From Spirochaetota bacterium (GTDB taxonomy: Bacteria > Spirochaetota > GWE2-31-10): 64,000 nucleotides of DNA. The position numbers and the translations under genes are program-made. Below, piece after piece: positions 1-6,932 of this stretch; position 1 is the first letter of the stretch, and every line of letters begins with the position of its first letter. The notes beneath the pieces are model-generated. The model saw only the letters and a list, made by a program, of their open reading frames with translations, searched no databases and was not told the origin of the DNA. The stretch is taken from NCBI GenBank assembly GCA_045133795.1, contig JBGUUT010000126.1:7943-71942 (forward strand), given 5' to 3'.

Positions 1-874
1 TTCCGCCACCGGGACCGATGTCTCCGATTTTCAAAGTCTTTTTTAATTCTTCCATAATAGGTGTATAAAGAGCATCAACTATATCTTTTGTATAAGTTGG
101 TAACAAATCAAAGATATCGTCTATAGAGCCAAACTGTTTTTTTGAGGACGAGAGTACAACCGCAGTCTTCAAGTCAATGACTGTAGAAGAAAGGTACATT
201 CTGCTTCCTAGCTTGATTATTTGTCCTCTTGCTACCATTGTTGCGTTTATGGCATTACCTAAAGCGACTGTCTTTTCTTTATTCGACCAGTCGGATGCTT
301 GAAATTTCATTTCTTTGATTGTCTTATCAAAGTTCGCTCTGTCTACTACATTTACTTTGCCGGTAGAAACAAGTTCTGCAATAAACAGTTCTGTTATTGC
401 ATCTGCTTCTTCACTGTTTACTGCCCCTGCTGTTATATCAAACGTCGAAACTGCGACATAGGGAAGTTGCATTTCTTGAGTTCCTTTAACTTGCGTAATA
501 CTTGTACTGACTGTTTTAGGATGTCTTAATACTCCGTCTTTAGTTCCGAATGAGTTAAATACAAATTCCGGCATTTCAGGATCTTCAAAATACAGACCAT
601 CATTAGGATTATAAAACTTATAATATTCTATTGGTTTTTCCATTACAAAACGATATTCCCATTCACCTTGTGCATTTCTTACCATCGGTTTGCCCGGTTC
701 TTCCCAGTCATTTGTCATTGTTCCGATACAGTTCACGGCTGACATCTTGTTATTTTTATATGTGATGATACACGTCCATTTGCTGTCTTTTTCCTCATAT
801 CTGACTTTTGCATTTACAGCCATTACGGAAAATAACAACATTGTAACTACTAATAATTTGATTAGTTTTCTCAT
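1..874 (-). CDS. Secreted protein, partial (the 3' end runs off the window start). The C-terminal half has a CsgG/LpoB/TolB-N-like periplasmic fold signature.
   Basis: ATG at 874..872 preceded by AAAGGAGA. My hand translation of the minus strand gives MRKLIKLLVVTMLLFSVMAVNAKVRYEEKDSKW..., a Sec signal peptide ending in an AVNA|K cleavage site, and the frame stays open to position 1. The segment VSTFDITAGAVNSEEADAITELFIAELVSTGKVNVVDRANFDKTIKEM..LGNAINATMVARGQIIKLGSRMYLSSTVIDLKT resembles CsgG/LpoB-type domains. It is absent from the ORF track because it is truncated. Confidence 0.45.
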   Translation of the reverse strand, partial: MRKLIKLLVVTMLLFSVMAVNAKVRYEEKDSKWTCIITYKNNKMSAVNCIGTMTNDWEEPGKPMVRNAQGEWEYRFVMEKPIEYYKFYNPNDGLYFEDPEMPEFVFNSFGTKDGVLRHPKTVSTSITQVKGTQEMQLPYVAVSTFDITAGAVNSEEADAITELFIAELVSTGKVNVVDRANFDKTIKEMKFQASDWSNKEKTVALGNAINATMVARGQIIKLGSRMYLSSTVIDLKTAVVLSSSKKQFGSIDDIFDLLPTYTKDIVDALYTPIMEELKKTLKIGDIGPGGG

Positions 875-901
875 TTATTTGTCTCCTTTATTTTTTGATT
901 A

Positions 902-1957
902 TTATATATGGTCTATAGTAAGAACTGTTTTCGATTTTGGACTTCCCCAAATTCTTTCAAATTGAGTTATAAATTGATTCGATATTTCAGGATTTAATTC
1001 AGAATTTATATAAAATACAAATGAATTCCTTGTTACTTCCGTGGCTGTATACAATGCGATATACAAAATGTTGTCACAGCGGATATAGGAAAAATACGGA
1101 ATATCATCATAGTATTTTAAACAGAGAGAAGCTTCTTGTCTGTTCATGGCGTTTTTAAATTCAAGATTATTTGAAAATGTATCTTTTAGTTCTTGATATT
1201 TCTTTTTTGTTTCTGTTGCTTTATCAAAGAAATCTTTTGTATCACCATTTCTGATATACGAAAATCTAGCTTTAACTAAATTTGATTCCGGTGATAACGC
1301 CATTATTCTGATTCTGGCACTTTGTGTATTAAGTAAGTTATTTTTAAAAATATCTAATGCTTCGGTAGATGTTTCACCTGTCATGCTTAAAATATCAATC
1401 TCTGTTGCTCTAGAAAATGCTGTTTTAATTATATCTTGGACTTTTGGGTCTATTCGTCTTCCGAGAAGATGAAGTCCCTTTTTATCTTCTCTGTTAAAAG
1501 CTATATTTTCACAATATTTATTATGTTCATATATTCTAAAAATATGCTCAACACTTTGCCGTATCTCATTTTTTGTTAATTCTATATCTTTTGAAATAGG
1601 ATTCATATTTGGATATGGATATGCAATAACATTCATTGCTCCTATATCAAAAGGAATCGAATCCTTAGAATTACCTGCTCTCAAAATAATACAAGGTTTA
1701 CCAGTCATGTGGCGGATTCCTAATTCATAAAAAACATTAGGATTTAAATCTGTAATGTCACATACAACTAAATCGGCTTCTTTAAGATTATGTACTATAT
1801 CAGTTGTAATGATATTTCGAGGAATATCAATTGGTAATAAAATATTGAAGTCATCTCCCAGAGCAGGAGTAAGTATATTATCTTGAACATATCTAGAACG
1901 TTTTCGTTCGGGCGAATCCGCTTCTTTCAATGTACAAATAAAAAACGCTGTTTTCAT
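902..1957 (-). CDS. Protein with an N-terminal nucleoside 2-deoxyribosyltransferase-like (SLOG/Rossmannoid) domain and an uncharacterised roughly 220-aa C-terminal domain
   Basis: 351-aa ORF with RBS AAAGGAG. The N-terminus MKTAFFICTL...EADLVVCDITDLNPNVFYELGIRHMTGKPCIIL matches the NDT/SLOG pattern (buried beta-strand start, D-x-x-D, NPNV-x-YELG with the Glu, GKP). The C-terminal region matches nothing I recognise. Confidence 0.55.
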   Translation of the reverse strand: MKTAFFICTLKEADSPERKRSRYVQDNILTPALGDDFNILLPIDIPRNIITTDIVHNLKEADLVVCDITDLNPNVFYELGIRHMTGKPCIILRAGNSKDSIPFDIGAMNVIAYPYPNMNPISKDIELTKNEIRQSVEHIFRIYEHNKYCENIAFNREDKKGLHLLGRRIDPKVQDIIKTAFSRATEIDILSMTGETSTEALDIFKNNLLNTQSARIRIMALSPESNLVKARFSYIRNGDTKDFFDKATETKKKYQELKDTFSNNLEFKNAMNRQEASLCLKYYDDIPYFSYIRCDNILYIALYTATEVTRNSFVFYINSELNPEISNQFITQFERIWGSPKSKTVLTIDHI

Positions 1958-2126
1958 TCTTATTTCTCCTTTATGTTTTGATTATTTTTACTTTCCATTC
2001 CGGAAAGTTTTTTTCTTTTGACCGGGAGTTCGACTTAGCTTTTTGCCGTTTTTTCCTGATGGGAAAAACTTCGTTCGTTCGCAATGCGAACTCACCTTAG
2101 CTCACGTTCGTCACTCCACGAGAACA

Positions 2127-2227
2127 CCTCTCATAACTGCATGAGAAATGCTCTCATAGCATTATGAGAATCTCTCTCATGCCGTTATGAGAACGTCTTC
2201 ACTCGTACTATGAGAGCCCCTCTCATG
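2127..2227. repeat. Tandem array of four imperfect 20-25 bp palindromic units (CTCTCATA-N5-7-TATGAGA). It may be operator-like and lies in the 5' region of the 902..1957 gene.
   Basis: Read directly: cctctcataactgcatgagaa, gctctcatagcattatgagaa, tctctcatgccgttatgagaa, then the inverted-orientation unit tatgagagcccctctcatgc. Additional dyads lie just upstream: GTTCGCA|TGCGAAC at about 2078-2092 and GTTTTTCC-tgat-GGAAAAAC at about 2049-2070. Confidence 0.6.
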
Positions 2228-2228
2228 C

Positions 2229-2963
2229 TTAATCATCGATTGCGTTACAAGCGTAGTTGTAAGTAATCTCACGTATCGAAGCGAGATTTGCTCCGCCGCT
2301 GTAGTTCGTTTTGATTTTCACGGTTACGGCTCCGGCAGGTACTGTCGACGGTACACGTGCGATTATTTGGCTCGGTTTGTTTACTGTCAGTCGGCGTGTT
2401 ACTCTGTGTTCTGCTCCCGTAGAGTCCACGATAAAGATTCCTTGATTTTGGTCGGCTTCATCGGTGATTTTGATTTTTTCGCCGTCGATTACGATGTCGT
2501 CGCCGATTGTGATTGTGCCGTCTTTGAGTCCTGTGGCACCGTCAGTAATCGCCGTGATTCGTGCAGAGGCTGATGTAGCTCCCATTACTTTCACAGATAT
2601 TCCGTCAAGTGTGCTTCGTAAATCTGCTGTCGGTACAAGGTCTACCGTGCGTTTGTGAGTAGCTGGGTCGAAGCTCGCTGCTTCATTTTCCCAAACTCCG
2701 CTTACTCTCGGCGTGATTTGCACTAAGCCGTCACGGAAACTTGAGCATTCTTGGATAAATGCTTTTACTGCATTGTCACGCAGGTTAAGAATATTGAGGA
2801 TTGTGTCCTTGCGGTATTCGCTTCGTTCGCTGACGATTCTTTCCGCTACGTCTTCGTTTGTCAATGTAGCACCGTTAAGGTGAACATCGGCGATACAGTC
2901 TTTGTCATTGTCTTTTGTGAGTGCGTTCGGTCGTAAGTAGACCTGCCATTGGTTGTTTGCCAT
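2229..2963 (-). CDS. Bacteroidetes-type HU-family DNA-binding protein (HU-HIG N-terminal domain plus DUF4469/Ig-like C-terminal domain)
   Basis: 244-aa ORF with RBS AAAGGAG. The N-terminus MANNQWQVYLRPNALTKDNDKDCIADVHLNGATLTNEDVAERIV follows the HU-HIG pattern (basic start, N-x-LT-x-D, Y/C-x-A-x-V) and FDPATHKRTVDLVPTADLR follows the DUF4469-like pattern. Local GC is clearly higher (about 48%) than the flanks (about 33%). Confidence 0.55.
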   Translation of the reverse strand: MANNQWQVYLRPNALTKDNDKDCIADVHLNGATLTNEDVAERIVSERSEYRKDTILNILNLRDNAVKAFIQECSSFRDGLVQITPRVSGVWENEAASFDPATHKRTVDLVPTADLRSTLDGISVKVMGATSASARITAITDGATGLKDGTITIGDDIVIDGEKIKITDEADQNQGIFIVDSTGAEHRVTRRLTVNKPSQIIARVPSTVPAGAVTVKIKTNYSGGANLASIREITYNYACNAIDD

Positions 2964-3031
2964 AGTAAATACTCCTTTGATTTCTTCTTTCCTTATGTGT
3001 AGTAAAGGCTGGAAGAAAGCAAAGAGAATGT

Positions 3032-3047
3032 AAAAAAAAAAAAAAAA
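3032..3047. repeat. A16 homopolymeric tract (T16 on the minus strand), 69-84 bp upstream of the 2229..2963 gene start
   Basis: 16 consecutive A residues counted in the sequence. Confidence 0.9.
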
Positions 3048-3226
3048 CTGTCAAATTTATTGATAATATATAGGAGTAAAAACATTTTTTTGGGCGTGCA
3101 GTTGGCTTCTTTTCTCCTCTTTGGCTGCCGGCACGCTCTTTTTAGGAAAACGGAAAGGTGAAAGAGGGAAGATGAGAAATGAGAATGAACTCACCGAGAG
3201 GAGCGTCCTTTTCTCTTGGGAGTTAT

Positions 3227-3268
3227 AGAGGGTATTCTCTTTTCATCGCAAAAAAGAGAATACCCTCT
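3227..3268. repeat. Perfect 17-bp-stem hairpin (AGAGGGTATTCTCTTTT / AAAAGAGAATACCCTCT), not followed by a T-run
   Basis: The inverted repeat is read directly and is not a canonical terminator on either strand. Confidence 0.7.
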
Positions 3269-3276
3269 AACTTCTA

Positions 3277-3470
3277 CCAACTTTGAACCAAAGTTGCATT
3301 TTAACGCCGGCTATGCCGGCAAAAAGAGCCTTAAACCTAAGTTGGTTTATAAAACTTTAAACCAAAGTTGCATTTTAACGCCGGCTATGCCGGCAAATAA
3401 AGCTCCAAACCTTGCAAAGTTTTAGAAAAGTTTTGTCCCCAAAACGACCATAACTCGCCGGCTATGCCGG
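3277..3470. repeat. Mosaic direct repeats (about 45-bp unit, present 2.5 times). Each unit carries an AT-rich hairpin (CAACTTTG..CAAAGTTG) and a GC hairpin (GCCGGC-TAT-GCCGGC).
   Basis: aaccaaagttgcattttaacgccggctatgccggcaaa occurs at about 3288 and again at about 3358. cgccggctatgccggcaaaag occurs a third time at about 3447, and the aactttaaacc modules are also repeated. Confidence 0.7.
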
Positions 3471-3518
3471 CAAAAGGAACTTTAAACCCACGTGGTTTGA
3501 AAAGCTTTGAAGAAAGCT

Positions 3519-3920
3519 TTAGTTTTGTTGTTCGCCGTTGTAGTCGTTGATTCCGCCGATTTCGATAATATTTGCATATTTTAAATCAATAAGTTTTTGT
3601 GCTGCAATTTTACTGCGGCGACCGCTTCTGCAATAAACAAAGATTTGTTGTTCTTTATTCGGTAAAATCGTTTCACATGTTCGCTCGCTAATATTATCGT
3701 GCGGAAATAAAACTGCACCCGGAATATGACCGGAAGCAAATTCATCTAAGCTGCGAACATCCAGCAAAATATAATCAGAAGATTCTGACATGATTTTTAA
3801 ACCTTCTTCCATCGAAACGGATTGATAAGTAAGATTTTTTTCAGCTTCTTTTTGATTAATACAGTTGAAAAGGAAAGGAACGCACATAAAAATAATCAAA
3901 TATTTAAAGTAATTTCTCAT
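3519..3920 (-). CDS. Rhodanese-like sulfurtransferase domain protein with a signal peptide
   Basis: Rhodanese active-site loop CRSGRRS, a GHIPGA motif and a hydrophobic N-terminus. Confidence 0.8.
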   Translation of the reverse strand: MRNYFKYLIIFMCVPFLFNCINQKEAEKNLTYQSVSMEEGLKIMSESSDYILLDVRSLDEFASGHIPGAVLFPHDNISERTCETILPNKEQQIFVYCRSGRRSKIAAQKLIDLKYANIIEIGGINDYNGEQQN

Positions 3921-4133
3921 GTTGCAAATGTATAGATGAGATTTTGTAATTTATCAATGATAATCACAACTTATTTTTTTCATGGTAAAAACTTTTTTCA
4001 AAAGTCGACAATTAAGAACTTTTTTTTCTTACCGATAAAAGGAAAAGGGAATTTACATTTTACGTAATTTAAATGTAGATGAGACACAGGAGAGCAATTT
4101 TCTTCTGATATTTTTTGCGGCAATGGGCGGGGT

Positions 4134-6932
4134 ATGTTTTTAAAGAATCTTACTATTAATGGCTTTAAATCGTTTTGTGAAGCATCGGAGATAAAATTTG
4201 ATAAAGGGATTTCGGCAATTGTCGGACCTAACGGTTGCGGTAAATCAAATATTGTAGATGCATTAAAGTGGGTTTTGGGAGAACAAAAAAATCGATCTTT
4301 GCGTGCAAACAATATGACGGATGTTATTTTTAAAGGTACTACCGAAAAAAAAGGTTTGGGACGTGCCGAAGTTCGTTTGACATTGGTAAATGAAAACGGG
4401 TTGTTGCCGTTGGATTTTAATGAAGTAGAAGTTGCTCGTATAATTTATGCAGACGGTGAAAATGAATATTACATCAATAAAGAAAAAGTTCGTTTGAAGG
4501 ATATTCATGAGCTTTTTTTTGATACCGGAGTTGGTAAGTCGGCGTATTCATTTATGGAACAGGGAAAAATCGATATGATTCTTTCCAATAAGCCGGAAGA
4601 CCGTCGTTATATTATCGAAGAAGCTGCCGGAATTACAAAATATAAATCACGAAAACATGAAGCAGAAAATAACCTTAATCGTGCGAATGAAAATATTGTT
4701 CGTGCTCAAGATATTTTTTCTGAGGTTTCCAAACAATACGAATCAATGAAAAAACAAGCTGATAAAGCTCAACGTTATATGGAACTTAAAGACGGCGTGC
4801 GAGATTTGGAAATCGAGCTTGGAATCAACAGACTTATGTTGCAAAAAAATATAAAAGACCGTTTTGCCGGCAAACAGTCAAAAGTCGACGATGAATTAGC
4901 GGCGATTCAGGAAGAAATAGACAGCTTGCAATCTGACGTTTCGGAAAAAATGATTGCGGTTAATAATTTGGAACAGGAAAAAATAGACAGACATCGTGAG
5001 ATAGAAAGAACTGACGGAGAAATCAAAGCTTTGAATGTAAAAAATGCTGCTTTACGTGATAAAGAGGCGACAATTTCCAGTTCATTACGTACCGATGAAG
5101 AAAAGCTCGGTCGATTGGATAAAACGATTGCCGATACTGATGAAGAACTGGCGGCTGTTGATGATGAACGTTTTGATACAGTTTCAAAAATCAGCAGTAT
5201 TGAAAAGGATATTTCTCGTCATAACGAAATGATTTCGCAAATTGACATAGATTTGAAAAAAAATGATGAGCAAATCAAATCATTACACGGTTTGATAAAA
5301 GATTTAGCTGCGGAACAGGCAAGTAAACGAGGTCATTTAAAGGAAATTACAGACGCTTTGATTGTAAAGATTGAAGAGTCGCTAAATGTTTTTGATATGA
5401 ATTCTCGTGAAATTATGACGCTAAAGGAAAGTGTCGGCCATGATATTCCGAGAGTACGTGAAGAATTCAGAACTCGTCGTCAATTTTTGGAAGATGTTTT
5501 GAAGATTAGAAATATTCCGTCAGACAGCAGTGCGTTTTTTCAGCAGTTGGAAGATTTCGGAAAACATTTGCAAGATTTGGAAGAAAAACTCGGACACGCC
5601 GGCGAAAATGTAAATAAGTATGTGAAAGCGACTGAAATCTTTATGAATGATATTTTCAGCCCGGAAGGTATTATCCAGAGAAAACGTAAGACAGAACAGG
5701 AAATCGCAGAGTACGATAAACGTATGCATAATTACAGAATTGAAATTGAGAATTTGGAACGAAATTCTGAAACTAAAGAAGAGCAAAAGGAAAATTACAG
5801 AAAGCTTGTGGAAGAAGCAAAAGTAATTTATTCGTCGTTATTGGAAAAACAAAAATCTTTTGACCGTGAAATACAGCGTATTACAAAGATTAAAAATGAA
5901 TATATTGCACAGAAATCGGAAATTGAACGAACAATAAAATCTCGTAACGAAGAGCTTGAAGAAGTTCAATATGAAATTGACGAACTTGACGGTTTGTTGA
6001 GAACCGAACGCAACAAGAAAAAGAAGATAGAAGAACGTATTGAAGAATTGGACAATTTGATTCAATCGGAAAGTGAAAAGATGTCTCAACAGCAGTTGAG
6101 AATGCGTAATATAAACGAGTCTTTCTTAAAAAAGAAAGCGGAAATCGAAGAATTGAAGCTCAAACTTGCGGAAGTAGATACGACAATTAGCGAGATTTAT
6201 CGAAATGCGTACGACAATCTTTCCATTAACTTAAAGGAATATGAGAATTCCGAAAAATATAACACCGGGCGAGAAGCTTCCGTTATCCGAGAAACTCTTT
6301 CCGGAATAAAAAATGACATGATGTCATTGGGGCAAGTAAATATGGCGGCAATGCAGGAATGCGAATCGTTGAAAGAACGTTATGATTTACTTATGTCACA
6401 ATTAGAAGATTTGCAAAAAGGTAAAGATGATTTGCTTACTATAATAAATGAGCTTAACGGAAAGTCTCAAGAGATGTTTGAAAAAACTTATGTGGAAATC
6501 AGAAAGAATTTTCAGATGATTTTCTCTAAGTTATTTAACGGCGGAAAGGCTGATATTTTACTTACGGAACCGGAAAATCTTCTTGAAACCGGTATTGATG
6601 TAGAAGTGCAGCCGCCGGGACAGACTCGAAAAAGTATTACGCTTCTTTCCGGAGGACAGCGAACAATGACGGCAATTGCGTTGATGTTTGCTACTTTTAT
6701 GGTAAAACCGTCGCCGTTTTGTTTGCTGGATGAAATTGACGCAGCGTTGGACGAAGCTAATGTTACTCGTTTTATAGAGTTGGTTCAGGATTTTAAAGAC
6801 CAAAGCCAGTTTGTAATGATTACGCATAATAAAAAAACTATGTCTGCCGCAAATGTAATGTACGGTGTAACTCAAGAAACTATGGGGGTATCGAAAATTG
6901 TTTCTGCAAAATTTATTGAAAAAATTCTCTGA
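4134..6932 (+). CDS. smc: Chromosome segregation protein SMC (short form, 932 aa)
   Basis: The N-terminus FKSF...GPNGCGKSNIVDALKWVLGEQ and the C-terminus LSGGQRTMTAIAL...LLDEIDAALD are SMC head motifs, joined by a long coiled-coil middle. Confidence 0.9.
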   Translation: MFLKNLTINGFKSFCEASEIKFDKGISAIVGPNGCGKSNIVDALKWVLGEQKNRSLRANNMTDVIFKGTTEKKGLGRAEVRLTLVNENGLLPLDFNEVEVARIIYADGENEYYINKEKVRLKDIHELFFDTGVGKSAYSFMEQGKIDMILSNKPEDRRYIIEEAAGITKYKSRKHEAENNLNRANENIVRAQDIFSEVSKQYESMKKQADKAQRYMELKDGVRDLEIELGINRLMLQKNIKDRFAGKQSKVDDELAAIQEEIDSLQSDVSEKMIAVNNLEQEKIDRHREIERTDGEIKALNVKNAALRDKEATISSSLRTDEEKLGRLDKTIADTDEELAAVDDERFDTVSKISSIEKDISRHNEMISQIDIDLKKNDEQIKSLHGLIKDLAAEQASKRGHLKEITDALIVKIEESLNVFDMNSREIMTLKESVGHDIPRVREEFRTRRQFLEDVLKIRNIPSDSSAFFQQLEDFGKHLQDLEEKLGHAGENVNKYVKATEIFMNDIFSPEGIIQRKRKTEQEIAEYDKRMHNYRIEIENLERNSETKEEQKENYRKLVEEAKVIYSSLLEKQKSFDREIQRITKIKNEYIAQKSEIERTIKSRNEELEEVQYEIDELDGLLRTERNKKKKIEERIEELDNLIQSESEKMSQQQLRMRNINESFLKKKAEIEELKLKLAEVDTTISEIYRNAYDNLSINLKEYENSEKYNTGREASVIRETLSGIKNDMMSLGQVNMAAMQECESLKERYDLLMSQLEDLQKGKDDLLTIINELNGKSQEMFEKTYVEIRKNFQMIFSKLFNGGKADILLTEPENLLETGIDVEVQPPGQTRKSITLLSGGQRTMTAIALMFATFMVKPSPFCLLDEIDAALDEANVTRFIELVQDFKDQSQFVMITHNKKTMSAANVMYGVTQETMGVSKIVSAKFIEKIL

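Follow-up and report, generated by a model that had tools for sequence, protein, structure and literature searches.

An NDT-like module joined to a PLD fold lacking the HKD motif in Treponema-like bacteria: a plausible one-protein sensor and effector of immunity

Does this locus encode a self-contained immune protein, or does its product serve nucleotide metabolism, the cell envelope or the maintenance of a neighbouring gene island? The window (the whole stretch of DNA analysed, 64,000 nt) carries one long open reading frame at positions 902 to 1957 according to the ORF listing. The protein, termed NDT–X here, is plausibly a single-protein sensor–effector of immunity: it may act in the cytoplasm in abortive infection or immunity, as a two-domain protein whose N-domain would be the effector and whose pseudo-PLD domain would be the switch. 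The probability of this reading is put at about 0.45. The gene is laid out as follows:

902..1957, minus strand: NDT–X open reading frame, 351 aa, stop codon within the coordinates
1966..1971, minus strand: Shine-Dalgarno sequence AAGGAG, 8 nt before the ATG at 1957

The 99 % identical protein P0001 is annotated with a 15-aa N-terminal extension, which in the window falls into another reading frame; the correct length is therefore 351 aa. NDT–X is predicted to be cytoplasmic, with neither a signal peptide nor a transmembrane segment. Its GC content is 29.9 % and its GC3 is 18.5 % (5th percentile of same-size windows), as against a GC3 of 32 % for the SMC gene. Weak Pfam matches of the protein to Imm43 and DUF155 (E 0.015–0.12) were taken as noise.

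Fold searches were carried out separately for the two domains, as the initial annotation had advised, and the predicted models returned an NDT/MilB/TIR-like N-domain and a PLD-fold C-domain. The first part of the protein comprises these features:

1598..1957, minus strand: N-domain (residues 1 to ~120), a putative NDT/DNPH1-type, TIR-like Rossmannoid N-glycosidase module
1724..1759, minus strand: catalytic-type motif D67-I-T-D-L-N72-P-N74-V-F-Y77-E78, invariant in A1, A4 and A5
1478..1597, minus strand: linker (residues ~121 to 160), a long helix at 122–146 followed by a low-confidence loop in the secondary structure of model 1

An NDT/SLOG domain had been proposed here on the strength of the strings FFICTL and EADLVVCDITDLNPNVFYELGIRHMTGKPCIIL, which are both present in the ORF. 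The NDT-like half of that assignment is borne out, whereas the SLOG label is not, as LOG, DprA and ThsA-SLOG are missing from the top 60 fold matches and a GGxGT-type motif is absent. With the family profile, the best PDB match and hence nearest solved relative by sequence is DNPH1/Rcl, aligned over the catalytic motif. The Glu in the YELG helix of NDTs is the established nucleophile (E98 in LlNDT). HMMER aligned EADLVVCDITDLNPNVFYELGIRHMTGKPCIIL of the target to the ADVVVAEVTQPSLGVGYELGRAVALGKPILCL motif of Rcl/DNPH1, which places E78 on the YELG Glu, so that the proposed conservation of a catalytic-type Glu holds. This Glu corresponds to the catalytic residue E98 of LlNDT (10.1101/2023.08.16.553469). 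The N-domain family, found at no fewer than 585 genomic loci in Bacteria and Archaea, has the signature D-x4-N-P-N-V-x-Y-E-[LI]-G; in this family and in the distant NDT–X relatives the residues D67, N72, N74, V75, Y77 and E78 never vary, and D67 provides the acidic residue that precedes the Glu at the end of the previous strand.

NDT, DNPH1 (Rcl) and MilB have in common a flavodoxin-like alpha/beta fold, also present in the predicted model of the N-domain, and a motif running from a hydrophobic strand-D-x-T through Y-E-L-G to G-K-P, with Glu at the nucleophile position. The target differs from them in that N-P-N-V-x-Y-E stands for D-x-G-T-x-x-E, in a conserved S-x-x-R-x-R-S after strand 1, in its fusion to a second domain and in its score against Pfam NDT (PF05014), which at 14.3 bits (E 0.046) is below the gathering cut-off of 28.8 bits. 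Relatives exceed this cut-off: P0006 with 31.7, P0010 with 37.6, P0027 with 33.0 and the L023 protein with 33.5 bits. The fold matches of the model are MilB, which is the best, true NDTs and TIR domains; this fold evidence comes from a mediocre model, because the catalytic helix (residues 73–84) has a pLDDT below 50 in the full-length prediction.

The wider family is used in conflict systems, as the initial annotation had stated. The PADLOC CBASS effector model PDLC00733, which is labelled 'TIR', was matched by 80/80 sampled relatives and by the target itself at 8e-7. Four relatives are fused to STING (prok_STING) with the N-domain at the N-terminus, and the L023 and L099 fusions have the same effector-N/sensor-C layout as the target; further fusion partners are CAP12/Pycsar TIR and TPR repeats. 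Both the conserved Glu and these fusions suggest that the N-domain serves as effector and not as sensor, nucleotide sensing being one of the options of the initial annotation, and by analogy the domain may cleave an N-glycosidic bond. From these family-level observations we infer a conflict-system function for NDT–X itself. The NDT-like–STING fusions also mean that CBASS-type effectors use an NDT/DNPH1-like module and not just the canonical TIR, which bears on the substrates that such effectors might destroy.

The predicted model has a TIR-like fold, the TIR domain being represented in Pfam by PF01582, PF13676 and PF10137. The target gave no match at E<=1 to the Pfam models TIR, TIR_2, ThsB_TIR or CAP12-PCTIR_TIR, and the N-domain family profile found no TIR chain in the PDB. 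Activity of the SfSTING TIR is filament-driven, with the dimer mate completing the active site. Membership of the N-domain in the same sequence family as this TIR was considered and rejected: fold and residue spacing agree, the sequence searches do not support it, and since no sequence-level match was found the match in spacing may be a coincidence.

The second part of the protein, some 220 residues that had been described as matching no family, can be assigned:

905..1477, minus strand: C-domain 'X' (residues ~161 to 351), PLD fold without HKD, DUF5919-like
1049..1099, minus strand: degenerate HKD region P287-Y-F-S-Y291-I-R293-C-D295-N-x5-Y303, from family conservation

The C-domain was modelled with high confidence (pLDDT 91) and its structural matches belong exclusively to the PLD superfamily, the best being the non-catalytic TrmB sensor domain, TrmBL2 and FAM83. 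The catalytic motif HxK(x4)D(x6)GSxN (HKD) is absent; the strand reads F289-S-Y291-I-R293-C-D295-N in the target and Y/F-x-Y-x-R/K-x-D in the family consensus, with Tyr or Phe in the position of the catalytic His. P287 is invariant and D295 is kept in 81/90 of the X family. Polar residues are retained at the degenerate site, with a surface rich in Arg, Lys, Tyr, Ser and Asp. The target also has a long helical insertion (C-domain residues 99–132).

Could the polarity be the reverse, with the PLD-fold domain as nuclease or phosphodiesterase effector and the NDT-like domain as nucleotide-binding sensor? Many PLD-fold defence proteins are nucleases, the fold matches include SauUSI, NucT, Nuc and BfiI, and Rossmannoid relatives such as SLOG include sensors. 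We consider this highly improbable all the same, given the loss of the HKD His across the family, the non-catalytic nature of the best fold matches, and the invariant Glu of an N-domain that forms the effector half in the STING fusions.

DUF5919, the C-terminal domain of TrmB/TrmBL2 and the DUF1669 of FAM83 have, like the target, a PLD fold without catalytic HKD; in the target this fold is coupled to an NDT-like module. By sequence the C-domain is probably related to DUF5919 (PF19319), through a transitive link via remote homologues, without a direct above-threshold match: 45/90 of its HMMER relatives match the Pfam model (best 1.2e-10), P0081 scores 25.2 bits with the cut-off at 23.5, P0198 carries the DUF5919 label in the precomputed table, and the Pfam HMM gave no match of the target itself at E<=1. 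No PDB match was obtained for the C-domain by sequence, either as single sequence or as profile, and a word-indexed homology search with its profile returned the family itself and nothing more.

Among 87 remote X relatives, the majority have two N-terminal TM helices, while in the remainder the module is TIR, NDT-like, EAD4 or EAD7. Since X is paired with such different modules, a sensor or regulatory role is suggested for it; the pattern resembles the effector-swapping seen with SAVED, STING and CARF. The pseudo-PLD domain probably acts as the switch of the NDT-like module. A more ambitious proposal goes further: the DUF5919-like pseudo-PLD would represent a class of immune sensor not recognised until now, with a role like that of SAVED, STING, CARF or cNMP-binding domains, interchangeably coupled to 2TM, TIR, NDT-like or EAD effectors and responding to a nucleotide-like or nucleic-acid signal, and in Treponema the effector would ride as a mobile cassette in a surface-protein island with an allele-specific DNA-binding protein and an operator array. 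This extended form is rather doubtful. The literature searched contained no mention of DUF5919 and no named defence system with an NDT plus PLD-like architecture. The contigs of TIR–X and other X relatives (P0133, P0126) are too short for informative context, and the neighbours of a Lysobacter NDT–X–NUDIX protein are a housekeeping RelA and unknowns.

If NDT–X is a sensor–effector, it could work as follows. The pseudo-PLD domain, probably as a dimer like single-HKD PLD domains, would bind a trigger; candidates are a protein, a nucleic acid and a small molecule with a phosphate group. Binding would make the N-domains oligomerise, and neighbouring subunits would complete each other's active sites in the manner of NDTs and TIRs. 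The assembled enzyme would then hydrolyse NAD(P)+ or a (deoxy)nucleotide at the N-glycosidic bond, deplete the pool and thereby halt replication of the cell or the phage. The effector of Retron type II-A (Retron-Eco1/Ec86) is built on the same two-lobe plan, with an NDT-like lobe for catalysis and a C-terminal lobe for recognition; it is an NAD(P)+ N-glycosidase that requires dimerisation and a trigger. Its C-terminal domain, however, is DNA-binding and differs in fold from that of the target, which has no RT and no msr/msd nearby, and no sequence match between the target and the solved Eco1 effector was detectable. The CBASS effectors TIR-STING (Cap12) and TIR-SAVED differ in turn: the target has a pseudo-PLD domain in place of STING or SAVED and its loci lack a CD-NTase/cyclase. 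None of the loci of the family has a signal-generating enzyme (CD-NTase, cyclase, TIR, RT) among its annotated neighbours. This lack weighs against the sensor–effector model, as do the sub-threshold Pfam NDT score, the mediocre model of the N-domain, the housekeeping surroundings and the transitive DUF5919 link. If the model is true, the dead PLD becomes a new sensor fold among the few domains known to control the immune effectors of bacteria, be they NADases, N-glycosidases or pore-formers, DUF5919 gains a function, and a defence candidate is obtained from host-associated spirochaetes, for which we know of almost no characterised phage-defence biology.

The distribution of the gene, its composition and its recent exchange bear on whether it is accessory, as had been proposed. 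The full NDT–X architecture was found in 5 protein clusters only, all Treponema-like and 45–99 % identical. The C-domain profile gave 353 pattern matches in 185,579 species-representative genomes (GTDB), of which 0 were confirmed; the viral scan with this profile yielded no family locus, and the only locus recovered by the metagenome scan was the known one of P0005, now on a longer contig. From one locus to another the outer flanks change, and in composition the gene is an outlier, both of which agree with accessory status. Comparison with other loci delimits an exchanged segment:

862..2025, minus strand: recently exchanged cassette, from identity steps against L007/L008 and L104

The cassette shares 97.9 % identity with L007/L008, where the flanks show no homology otherwise, and 97–100 % identity with L104, where the remainder of the surrounding module is about 85 % identical. 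For the NDT–X segment dS is 0.02–0.10, as against 0.4–0.7 for the genes on either side, and identity changes abruptly where the cassette ends; the segment is therefore taken as recently exchanged. With a dN/dS of 0.16–0.36, the sequence comparison indicates a mobile cassette under purifying selection.

Purifying selection would also suit a metabolic enzyme for nucleotide sanitising or salvage, namely a DNPH1/MilB-like hydrolase of (modified) NMPs in which the pseudo-PLD serves only allostery or oligomerisation and genetic conflict plays no part. The closest solved relatives, DNPH1/Rcl by sequence and the CMP/hmCMP hydrolase MilB by fold, and the housekeeping genes flanking the gene in the window are in line with it. 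Nevertheless, such a role is improbable in view of the extreme rarity and patchiness of the gene, its recent horizontal exchange and outlying composition, the fusions of its N-domain family to STING, TIR and TPR together with the CBASS effector match of every sampled member, and the recurrence of X with 2TM, TIR and EAD modules.

The sensor–effector reading leaves one constant of the locus unexplained, namely its secreted neighbours. The initial annotation had seen no partner genes; comparison of the neighbourhoods, which it had recommended as a search for a conserved cassette, revealed both a four-gene island and a constant adjoining gene:

2..874, minus strand: conserved partner gene, starting 27 nt after the target stop codon, 3' end past the window edge
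2229..2963, minus strand: HU-DNA_bdg plus DUF4469 protein, 244 aa, first gene of the four-gene island

Within the window the partner encodes a signal peptide, an unannotated region of ~110 aa, a CsgG/TolB_N/LpoB-like domain and the start of Lcl_C (DUF1566); in P0211 the full-length protein has 406 aa. A secreted CsgG/LpoB-like (±DUF1566) gene adjoins NDT–X at every locus in five diverged lineages, with gaps of 12–105 nt, upstream in some lineages and downstream in others. The partner CsgG/LpoB-like proteins gave no match in PADLOC. The order of the four-gene island is kept at different genomic positions in the lineage of the window, where the island adjoins housekeeping genes (rhodanese, SMC) and not a classical defence island. 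Other lineages do have neighbours of a defence type: the P0004 homologue adjoins an FRG gene that matches PDC-S15, a candidate system, and an SspD/BrxP-like PAPS reductase adjoins P0198; a 443-aa partner in the P0198 operon had no PDB or PADLOC match.

This pairing raises the possibility that NDT–X and the adjoining CsgG/LpoB-like–DUF1566 protein(s), perhaps with the HU/DUF4469 protein, form an envelope-linked module, which would either couple an envelope or surface event (phage adsorption, damage) to a cytoplasmic nucleotide-cleaving response or take part in making or regulating these surface proteins. Besides the constant adjacency and the preserved island order, it is favoured by the partner-family profile, which matches a single ORF in the 64-kb window, the one adjoining the target, and in the 21-kb L001 no ORFs other than the two that flank the gene. 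The partners, however, carry signal peptides and are exported, while NDT–X is cytoplasmic without a TM link, and since at least 229 clusters make up the partner family as against 5 for NDT–X, most partner genes exist without it. The step in dS and the GC3 speak for separate evolutionary histories of NDT–X and its flanks, the cassette of L007/L008 adjoins a quite different, Lcl_C-only protein, and distant NDT–X relatives have partners of other kinds. Such a module is unlikely; if it holds in place of the sensor–effector model, the constant pairing would point to a link between envelope proteins and cytoplasmic nucleotide chemistry.

Between the HU/DUF4469 gene and the cassette lies the palindromic array noticed earlier, and further repeats border the island:

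2118..2226, no strand assigned: palindrome array ATGAGAG-N3-YTCTCAT with a 23-nt period, between the HU/DUF4469 stop and the cassette
3172..3522, no strand assigned: 60–75-nt repeat copies with the CGCCGGCTATGCCGGC core, family D1, bordering the island

The initial annotation was right about both the array, which gives 7 strand matches with 0.08 expected, and the GC-anomalous neighbour, as the HU/DUF4469 gene has a GC content of 47.6 %, the window maximum. The array shows a one-unit indel relative to L103/L104, and L008 carries an allele-specific counterpart whose sequence changes with the HU allele. This covariation would fit an addiction or toxin gene that stabilises a variable surface-protein island, with NDT–X as an enzyme dangerous at all times that an upstream DNA-binding protein on the array would keep transcriptionally off. 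DNA-binding genes do lie upstream in four lineages, encoding HU/DUF4469 in the window, L007/8 and L103–105 and a divergent HTH_3 in L009 and L010. Yet binding of HU/DUF4469 to the array is putative, comparison with L007/L008 places the array beyond the boundary of the cassette, NDT–X of L001 adjoins no regulator of this kind, and a small antitoxin-like ORF is absent, all of which makes an addiction function very unlikely.

No tRNA or known RNA was found in the islet, with nothing above threshold in Rfam for positions 1–4200; the palindromes gave sub-threshold miRNA-hairpin noise only. The 36-nt leader repeats that bracket the target were rejected as a family-wide insertion signature, being confined to the window and L007/L008. 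In L103–L105, copies of the CGCCGGCTATGCCGGC-core repeat flank the module on one or both sides.

The best-supported reading of NDT–X is that of a single-chain sensor–effector protein, in which the pseudo-PLD domain would be the switch and the NDT/DNPH1-type, TIR-like domain would act as a Glu-dependent N-glycosidase on NAD(P)+ or a (deoxy)nucleotide; its function is inferred throughout. The features of the window which are discussed here are the following:

902..1957, minus strand: target NDT–X, 351 aa
874 to past the left window edge, minus strand: CsgG/LpoB-like partner gene, 27 nt after the target stop
2229-2963, minus strand: HU-DNA_bdg/DUF4469 gene
2118-2226: ATGAGAG-N3-YTCTCAT palindrome array with 23-nt period, directly after the HU/DUF4469 gene
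3172-3522: tandem repeats with a CGCCGGCTATGCCGGC core, upstream of the island

A ribosome-binding site (AAGGAG) lies 8 nt ahead of the target ATG. The metagenomic homologue P0001 is called 15 residues longer and this extension is out of frame in the window, so 351 aa is the right target length. No signal peptide or hydrophobic segment was found in the protein. The sequence strings quoted by the initial annotation, which had described a SLOG/NDT-like protein with a C-terminal part of no recognised family, are present in it.

Direct family evidence for the N-domain (residues 1 to about 120) is weak and transitive evidence strong. The target scored E 0.046 and 14.3 bits against Pfam Nuc_deoxyrib_tr (cut-off 28.8), its sole PDB phmmer match was Rcl/DNPH1 (E about 1), and in PADLOC it matched PDLC00733, a CBASS effector model labelled TIR, at E 8e-7. 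Relatives of the domain with other C-termini number in the hundreds, several of them above the Pfam NDT cut-off, and a search of bacterial and archaeal species-representative genomes for the signature NPNV[FM]YE[LI] gave at least 585 loci confirmed by tblastn. In an alignment of 80 members N-P-N-V-x-Y-E is invariant, and the F (strand 1), A-D-L(T), K-P and P-F-D motifs are nearly so. The best solved relative of the alignment profile was Rcl/DNPH1 (E 0.018; the alignment covers the catalytic motif), and no TIR chain was found by it among solved structures. All 80 relatives match the PADLOC CBASS effector model, and four of them are fused to prok_STING (two, in loci L023 and L099, confirmed one by one). 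Fusion to a CAP12/Pycsar TIR domain is seen in another relative, and to TPR repeats in many; therefore, this module serves as the effector half in immune proteins of the sensor–effector type, whose N-effector/C-sensor order is the same as in the target. The two confirmed STING fusions (L099 7983-12683, Emticicia sp. 17c; L023 7980-9122) match Rcl/DNPH1 and Pfam NDT in their N-domain, not a TIR model, and the L099 gene adjoins a small DprA/SLOG-like ORF and Cas6b/RAMP genes.

In the SfSTING paper F6, S10, R78, N80, E84 and D110' are given as active-site residues. Residues F5/F6, N72, N74, E78 and D104 of the target resemble this site, with identical N-to-E and E-to-D spacings; since sequence searches found no homology of the N-domain to the SfSTING TIR, the likeness is suggestive only.

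For the C-domain (X, residues ~161-351), a word-indexed search returned nothing beyond five full-length homologues, and a profile of residues 143-351, searched exhaustively with HMMER, gave 89 proteins at E<=1e-3, including 12 at E<=1e-10. The Pfam scan assigned DUF5919 (PF19319) to 45 of 90 X-domain sequences and PLDc_2 to 3. X lacks the HKD motif, the equivalent strand being F-S-Y291-I-R293-C-D295. A polar set is kept in the family: D188, R217, S225, R231, R/K281, Y283, D284, P287 (invariant), Y291, R/K293, D295, Y303, S312 and H/Q332. We infer that X is probably a regulatory domain binding a ligand, nucleic acid or protein, and not an enzyme. Its N-terminal partners in the Pfam scan were NDT (5), TIR_2 (4), TIR (3) and ThsB_TIR (2); CAP12/Pycsar TIR, EAD4, EAD7 and one ARMT1-like fusion were also seen, and most other relatives have a 60-100-aa N-terminus with two predicted TM helices. 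This swapping of 2TM, TIR, NDT and EAD partners is like the pattern of SAVED, STING, CARF and cNMP-binding domains. One relative, P0122 (L019-L021; 706 aa), carries X at residues 124-317 and a C-terminal ARMT1-like damage-control phosphatase domain. The literature search found no paper mentioning DUF5919.

Single-HKD PLD domains (Nuc, Zucchini) form their site across a dimer. NDTs are active in dimeric or hexameric form, and in SfSTING a dimer mate completes the TIR site when filaments form; by analogy with all three, activation of NDT–X would depend on oligomerisation. The Retron-Eco1 effector, in which an NDT-like domain is the NAD(P)+ hydrolase in defence and a C-terminal domain serves recognition, is a direct precedent. 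The NDT–X family loci contain no signal-producing enzyme, therefore the trigger would be sensed directly or made elsewhere. Both domains come from known superfamilies, and conflict systems are already known to use NDT/TIR-type effectors. The fusion of NDT-like and DUF5919-like pseudo-PLD domains, the pairing of the pseudo-PLD with 2TM, TIR and EAD modules and the Treponema island setting appear to have no description in the literature searched.

The full architecture is very rare, with five clusters at 90 % identity (one annotated Treponema sp.) which are 99 % (P0001), 66 % (P0002) and 45-47 % (P0003-P0005) identical to the target. Neither 185,579 species-representative genomes nor viral contigs yielded a member. 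D67/N72/N74/Y77/E78 and R231/P287/D295 are invariant through to the distant NDT–X proteins, namely P0198, P0142, P0162, P0187, P0081 and a Lysobacter NDT–X–NUDIX protein. The latter (L058 8001-9605, Lysobacter hankyongensis, 535 aa, NDT-like, pseudo-PLD X and NUDIX) is the sole X-domain carrier among the 80 closest genomic N-domain carriers. The neighbours of distant NDT–X proteins are different ones. In the conserved three-gene P0198 operon (L014-L018, five metagenomic contigs) a PAPS-reductase-family gene, which is SspD/BrxP/DndC-like (PADLOC SspD 6e-21, BrxP 2e-18), comes first, the NDT-like-DUF5919 gene (377 aa) second and an unannotated 443-aa gene third. The P0004 homologue has an FRG gene 1.6 kb away, with a hit to PDC-S15, a candidate defence system (E 1e-33).

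The neighbourhood comparison proposed by the initial annotation revealed an exported CsgG/TolB_N/LpoB/FlgO-like protein gene, usually also with an Lcl_C (DUF1566) domain, directly adjoining NDT–X in every Treponema-family locus. The gaps are 12-105 nt. In L010 and L012 the partner lies upstream of NDT–X; it is downstream of it in the window, L007/8 and L009, and L001 has one on either side. The partner-family profile matches a single ORF in the whole 64-kb window, the neighbour of the target, and in the 21-kb L001 the two ORFs flanking NDT–X and no others; hence the adjacency is not an artefact of abundance. The family comprises at least 229 clusters, the named ones from Treponema or Treponemataceae, so most partner genes occur without NDT–X and the association is one-way. 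The partners have no match in PADLOC, and their constancy is not explained by the sensor–effector model. Residues 24-130 of the window partner form an extra ~110-aa N-terminal region ahead of the CsgG/LpoB-like domain, without Pfam match and absent from the L009, L010 and L012 partners. Rpn-type nuclease/transposase-like genes (PDDEXK_2, Transposase_31) directly follow the CsgG-like gene of the module at L001 11932-12669 and L104 4730-5620; the NDT-X proteins of these two lineages share only 45 % identity.

Three further loci, L103-L105, were reached through close partner orthologues; they carry the four island genes of the window in unchanged order: HU-DNA_bdg/DUF4469, NDT–X (96-98 % aa identity), the partner (403-406 aa) and a second CsgG-like gene (267 aa). 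Their DNA is about 90 % identical to window 3058..1, and the outer flanks differ:

window: rhodanese and SMC upstream; downstream past the window edge
L103: FAA_hydrolase and an ABC gene upstream; GidB and pseudouridine synthase downstream
L104: Transposase_31 gene downstream

The dS values for HU/DUF4469, NDT–X and partner are 0.70, 0.023 and 0.39 against L104, and 0.62, 0.10 and 0.42 against L103; the history of NDT–X evidently differs from that of its neighbours within the module. DNA identity rises from 80-91 % to 97-100 % at about 2110-2215 and returns to 84-93 % at the partner start codon. In L007/L008 a segment of 1.17 kb (window 2025..862) shows 97.9 % identity; its flanks have no detectable DNA homology to the window on either side, and code for an HU/DUF4469 allele of 30 % identity and for a different protein with Lcl_C only. 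Compared with its host the target is rich in AT (GC3 18.5 % vs 31-32 % for partner and SMC), and its dN/dS is 0.16-0.36 on few substitutions. As judged from sequence comparison, the dS contrast, identity steps, L007/L008 segment, GC3 and dN/dS together show a functional gene that moved between strains as a cassette in the recent past, and the earlier proposal of an accessory gene rather than a universally conserved housekeeping paralogue is borne out.

The HU/DUF4469 gene is single copy and, at 47.6 %, is the GC maximum of the window (mean 34.4 %); against orthologues in the same module its dS is 0.6-0.7 and dN/dS 0.06. The palindrome array behind it gives 7 strand matches vs 0.08 expected, with no other site in the 64-kb window, and L103 and L104 differ from it by exactly one 23-nt unit (2119-2141). 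At the same position after its 30 %-identical allele, L008 (760-860) has another array (GGTAAC-N5/6-TTACC, ~4 copies, similar period). These arrays suggest that a DNA-binding protein co-evolves with its sites, whose copy number varies. The palindromic CGCCGGCTATGCCGGC-core repeats (60-75 nt; family D1 at 3279-3489) recur at L103 7305-7440, L104 4348-4528, L105 193-286 and 4676-4856, and L007 4750-4807, bordering the module on one or both sides in other strains (both in L105); a REP/MITE-like element is one possibility, an island boundary/recombination site another.

Within the conserved cassette, a perfect 7-bp hairpin (ACTTTCC-GGAAT-GGAAAGT, 1990-2008) lies just 5' of the target RBS and is terminator-like on the plus (antisense) strand only. 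The downstream partner and the target each have a 36-nt leader/RBS region (868-903 and 1951-1986); the two are 83 % identical direct repeats which bracket the target ORF, likewise in L007/L008 and not in other family loci.
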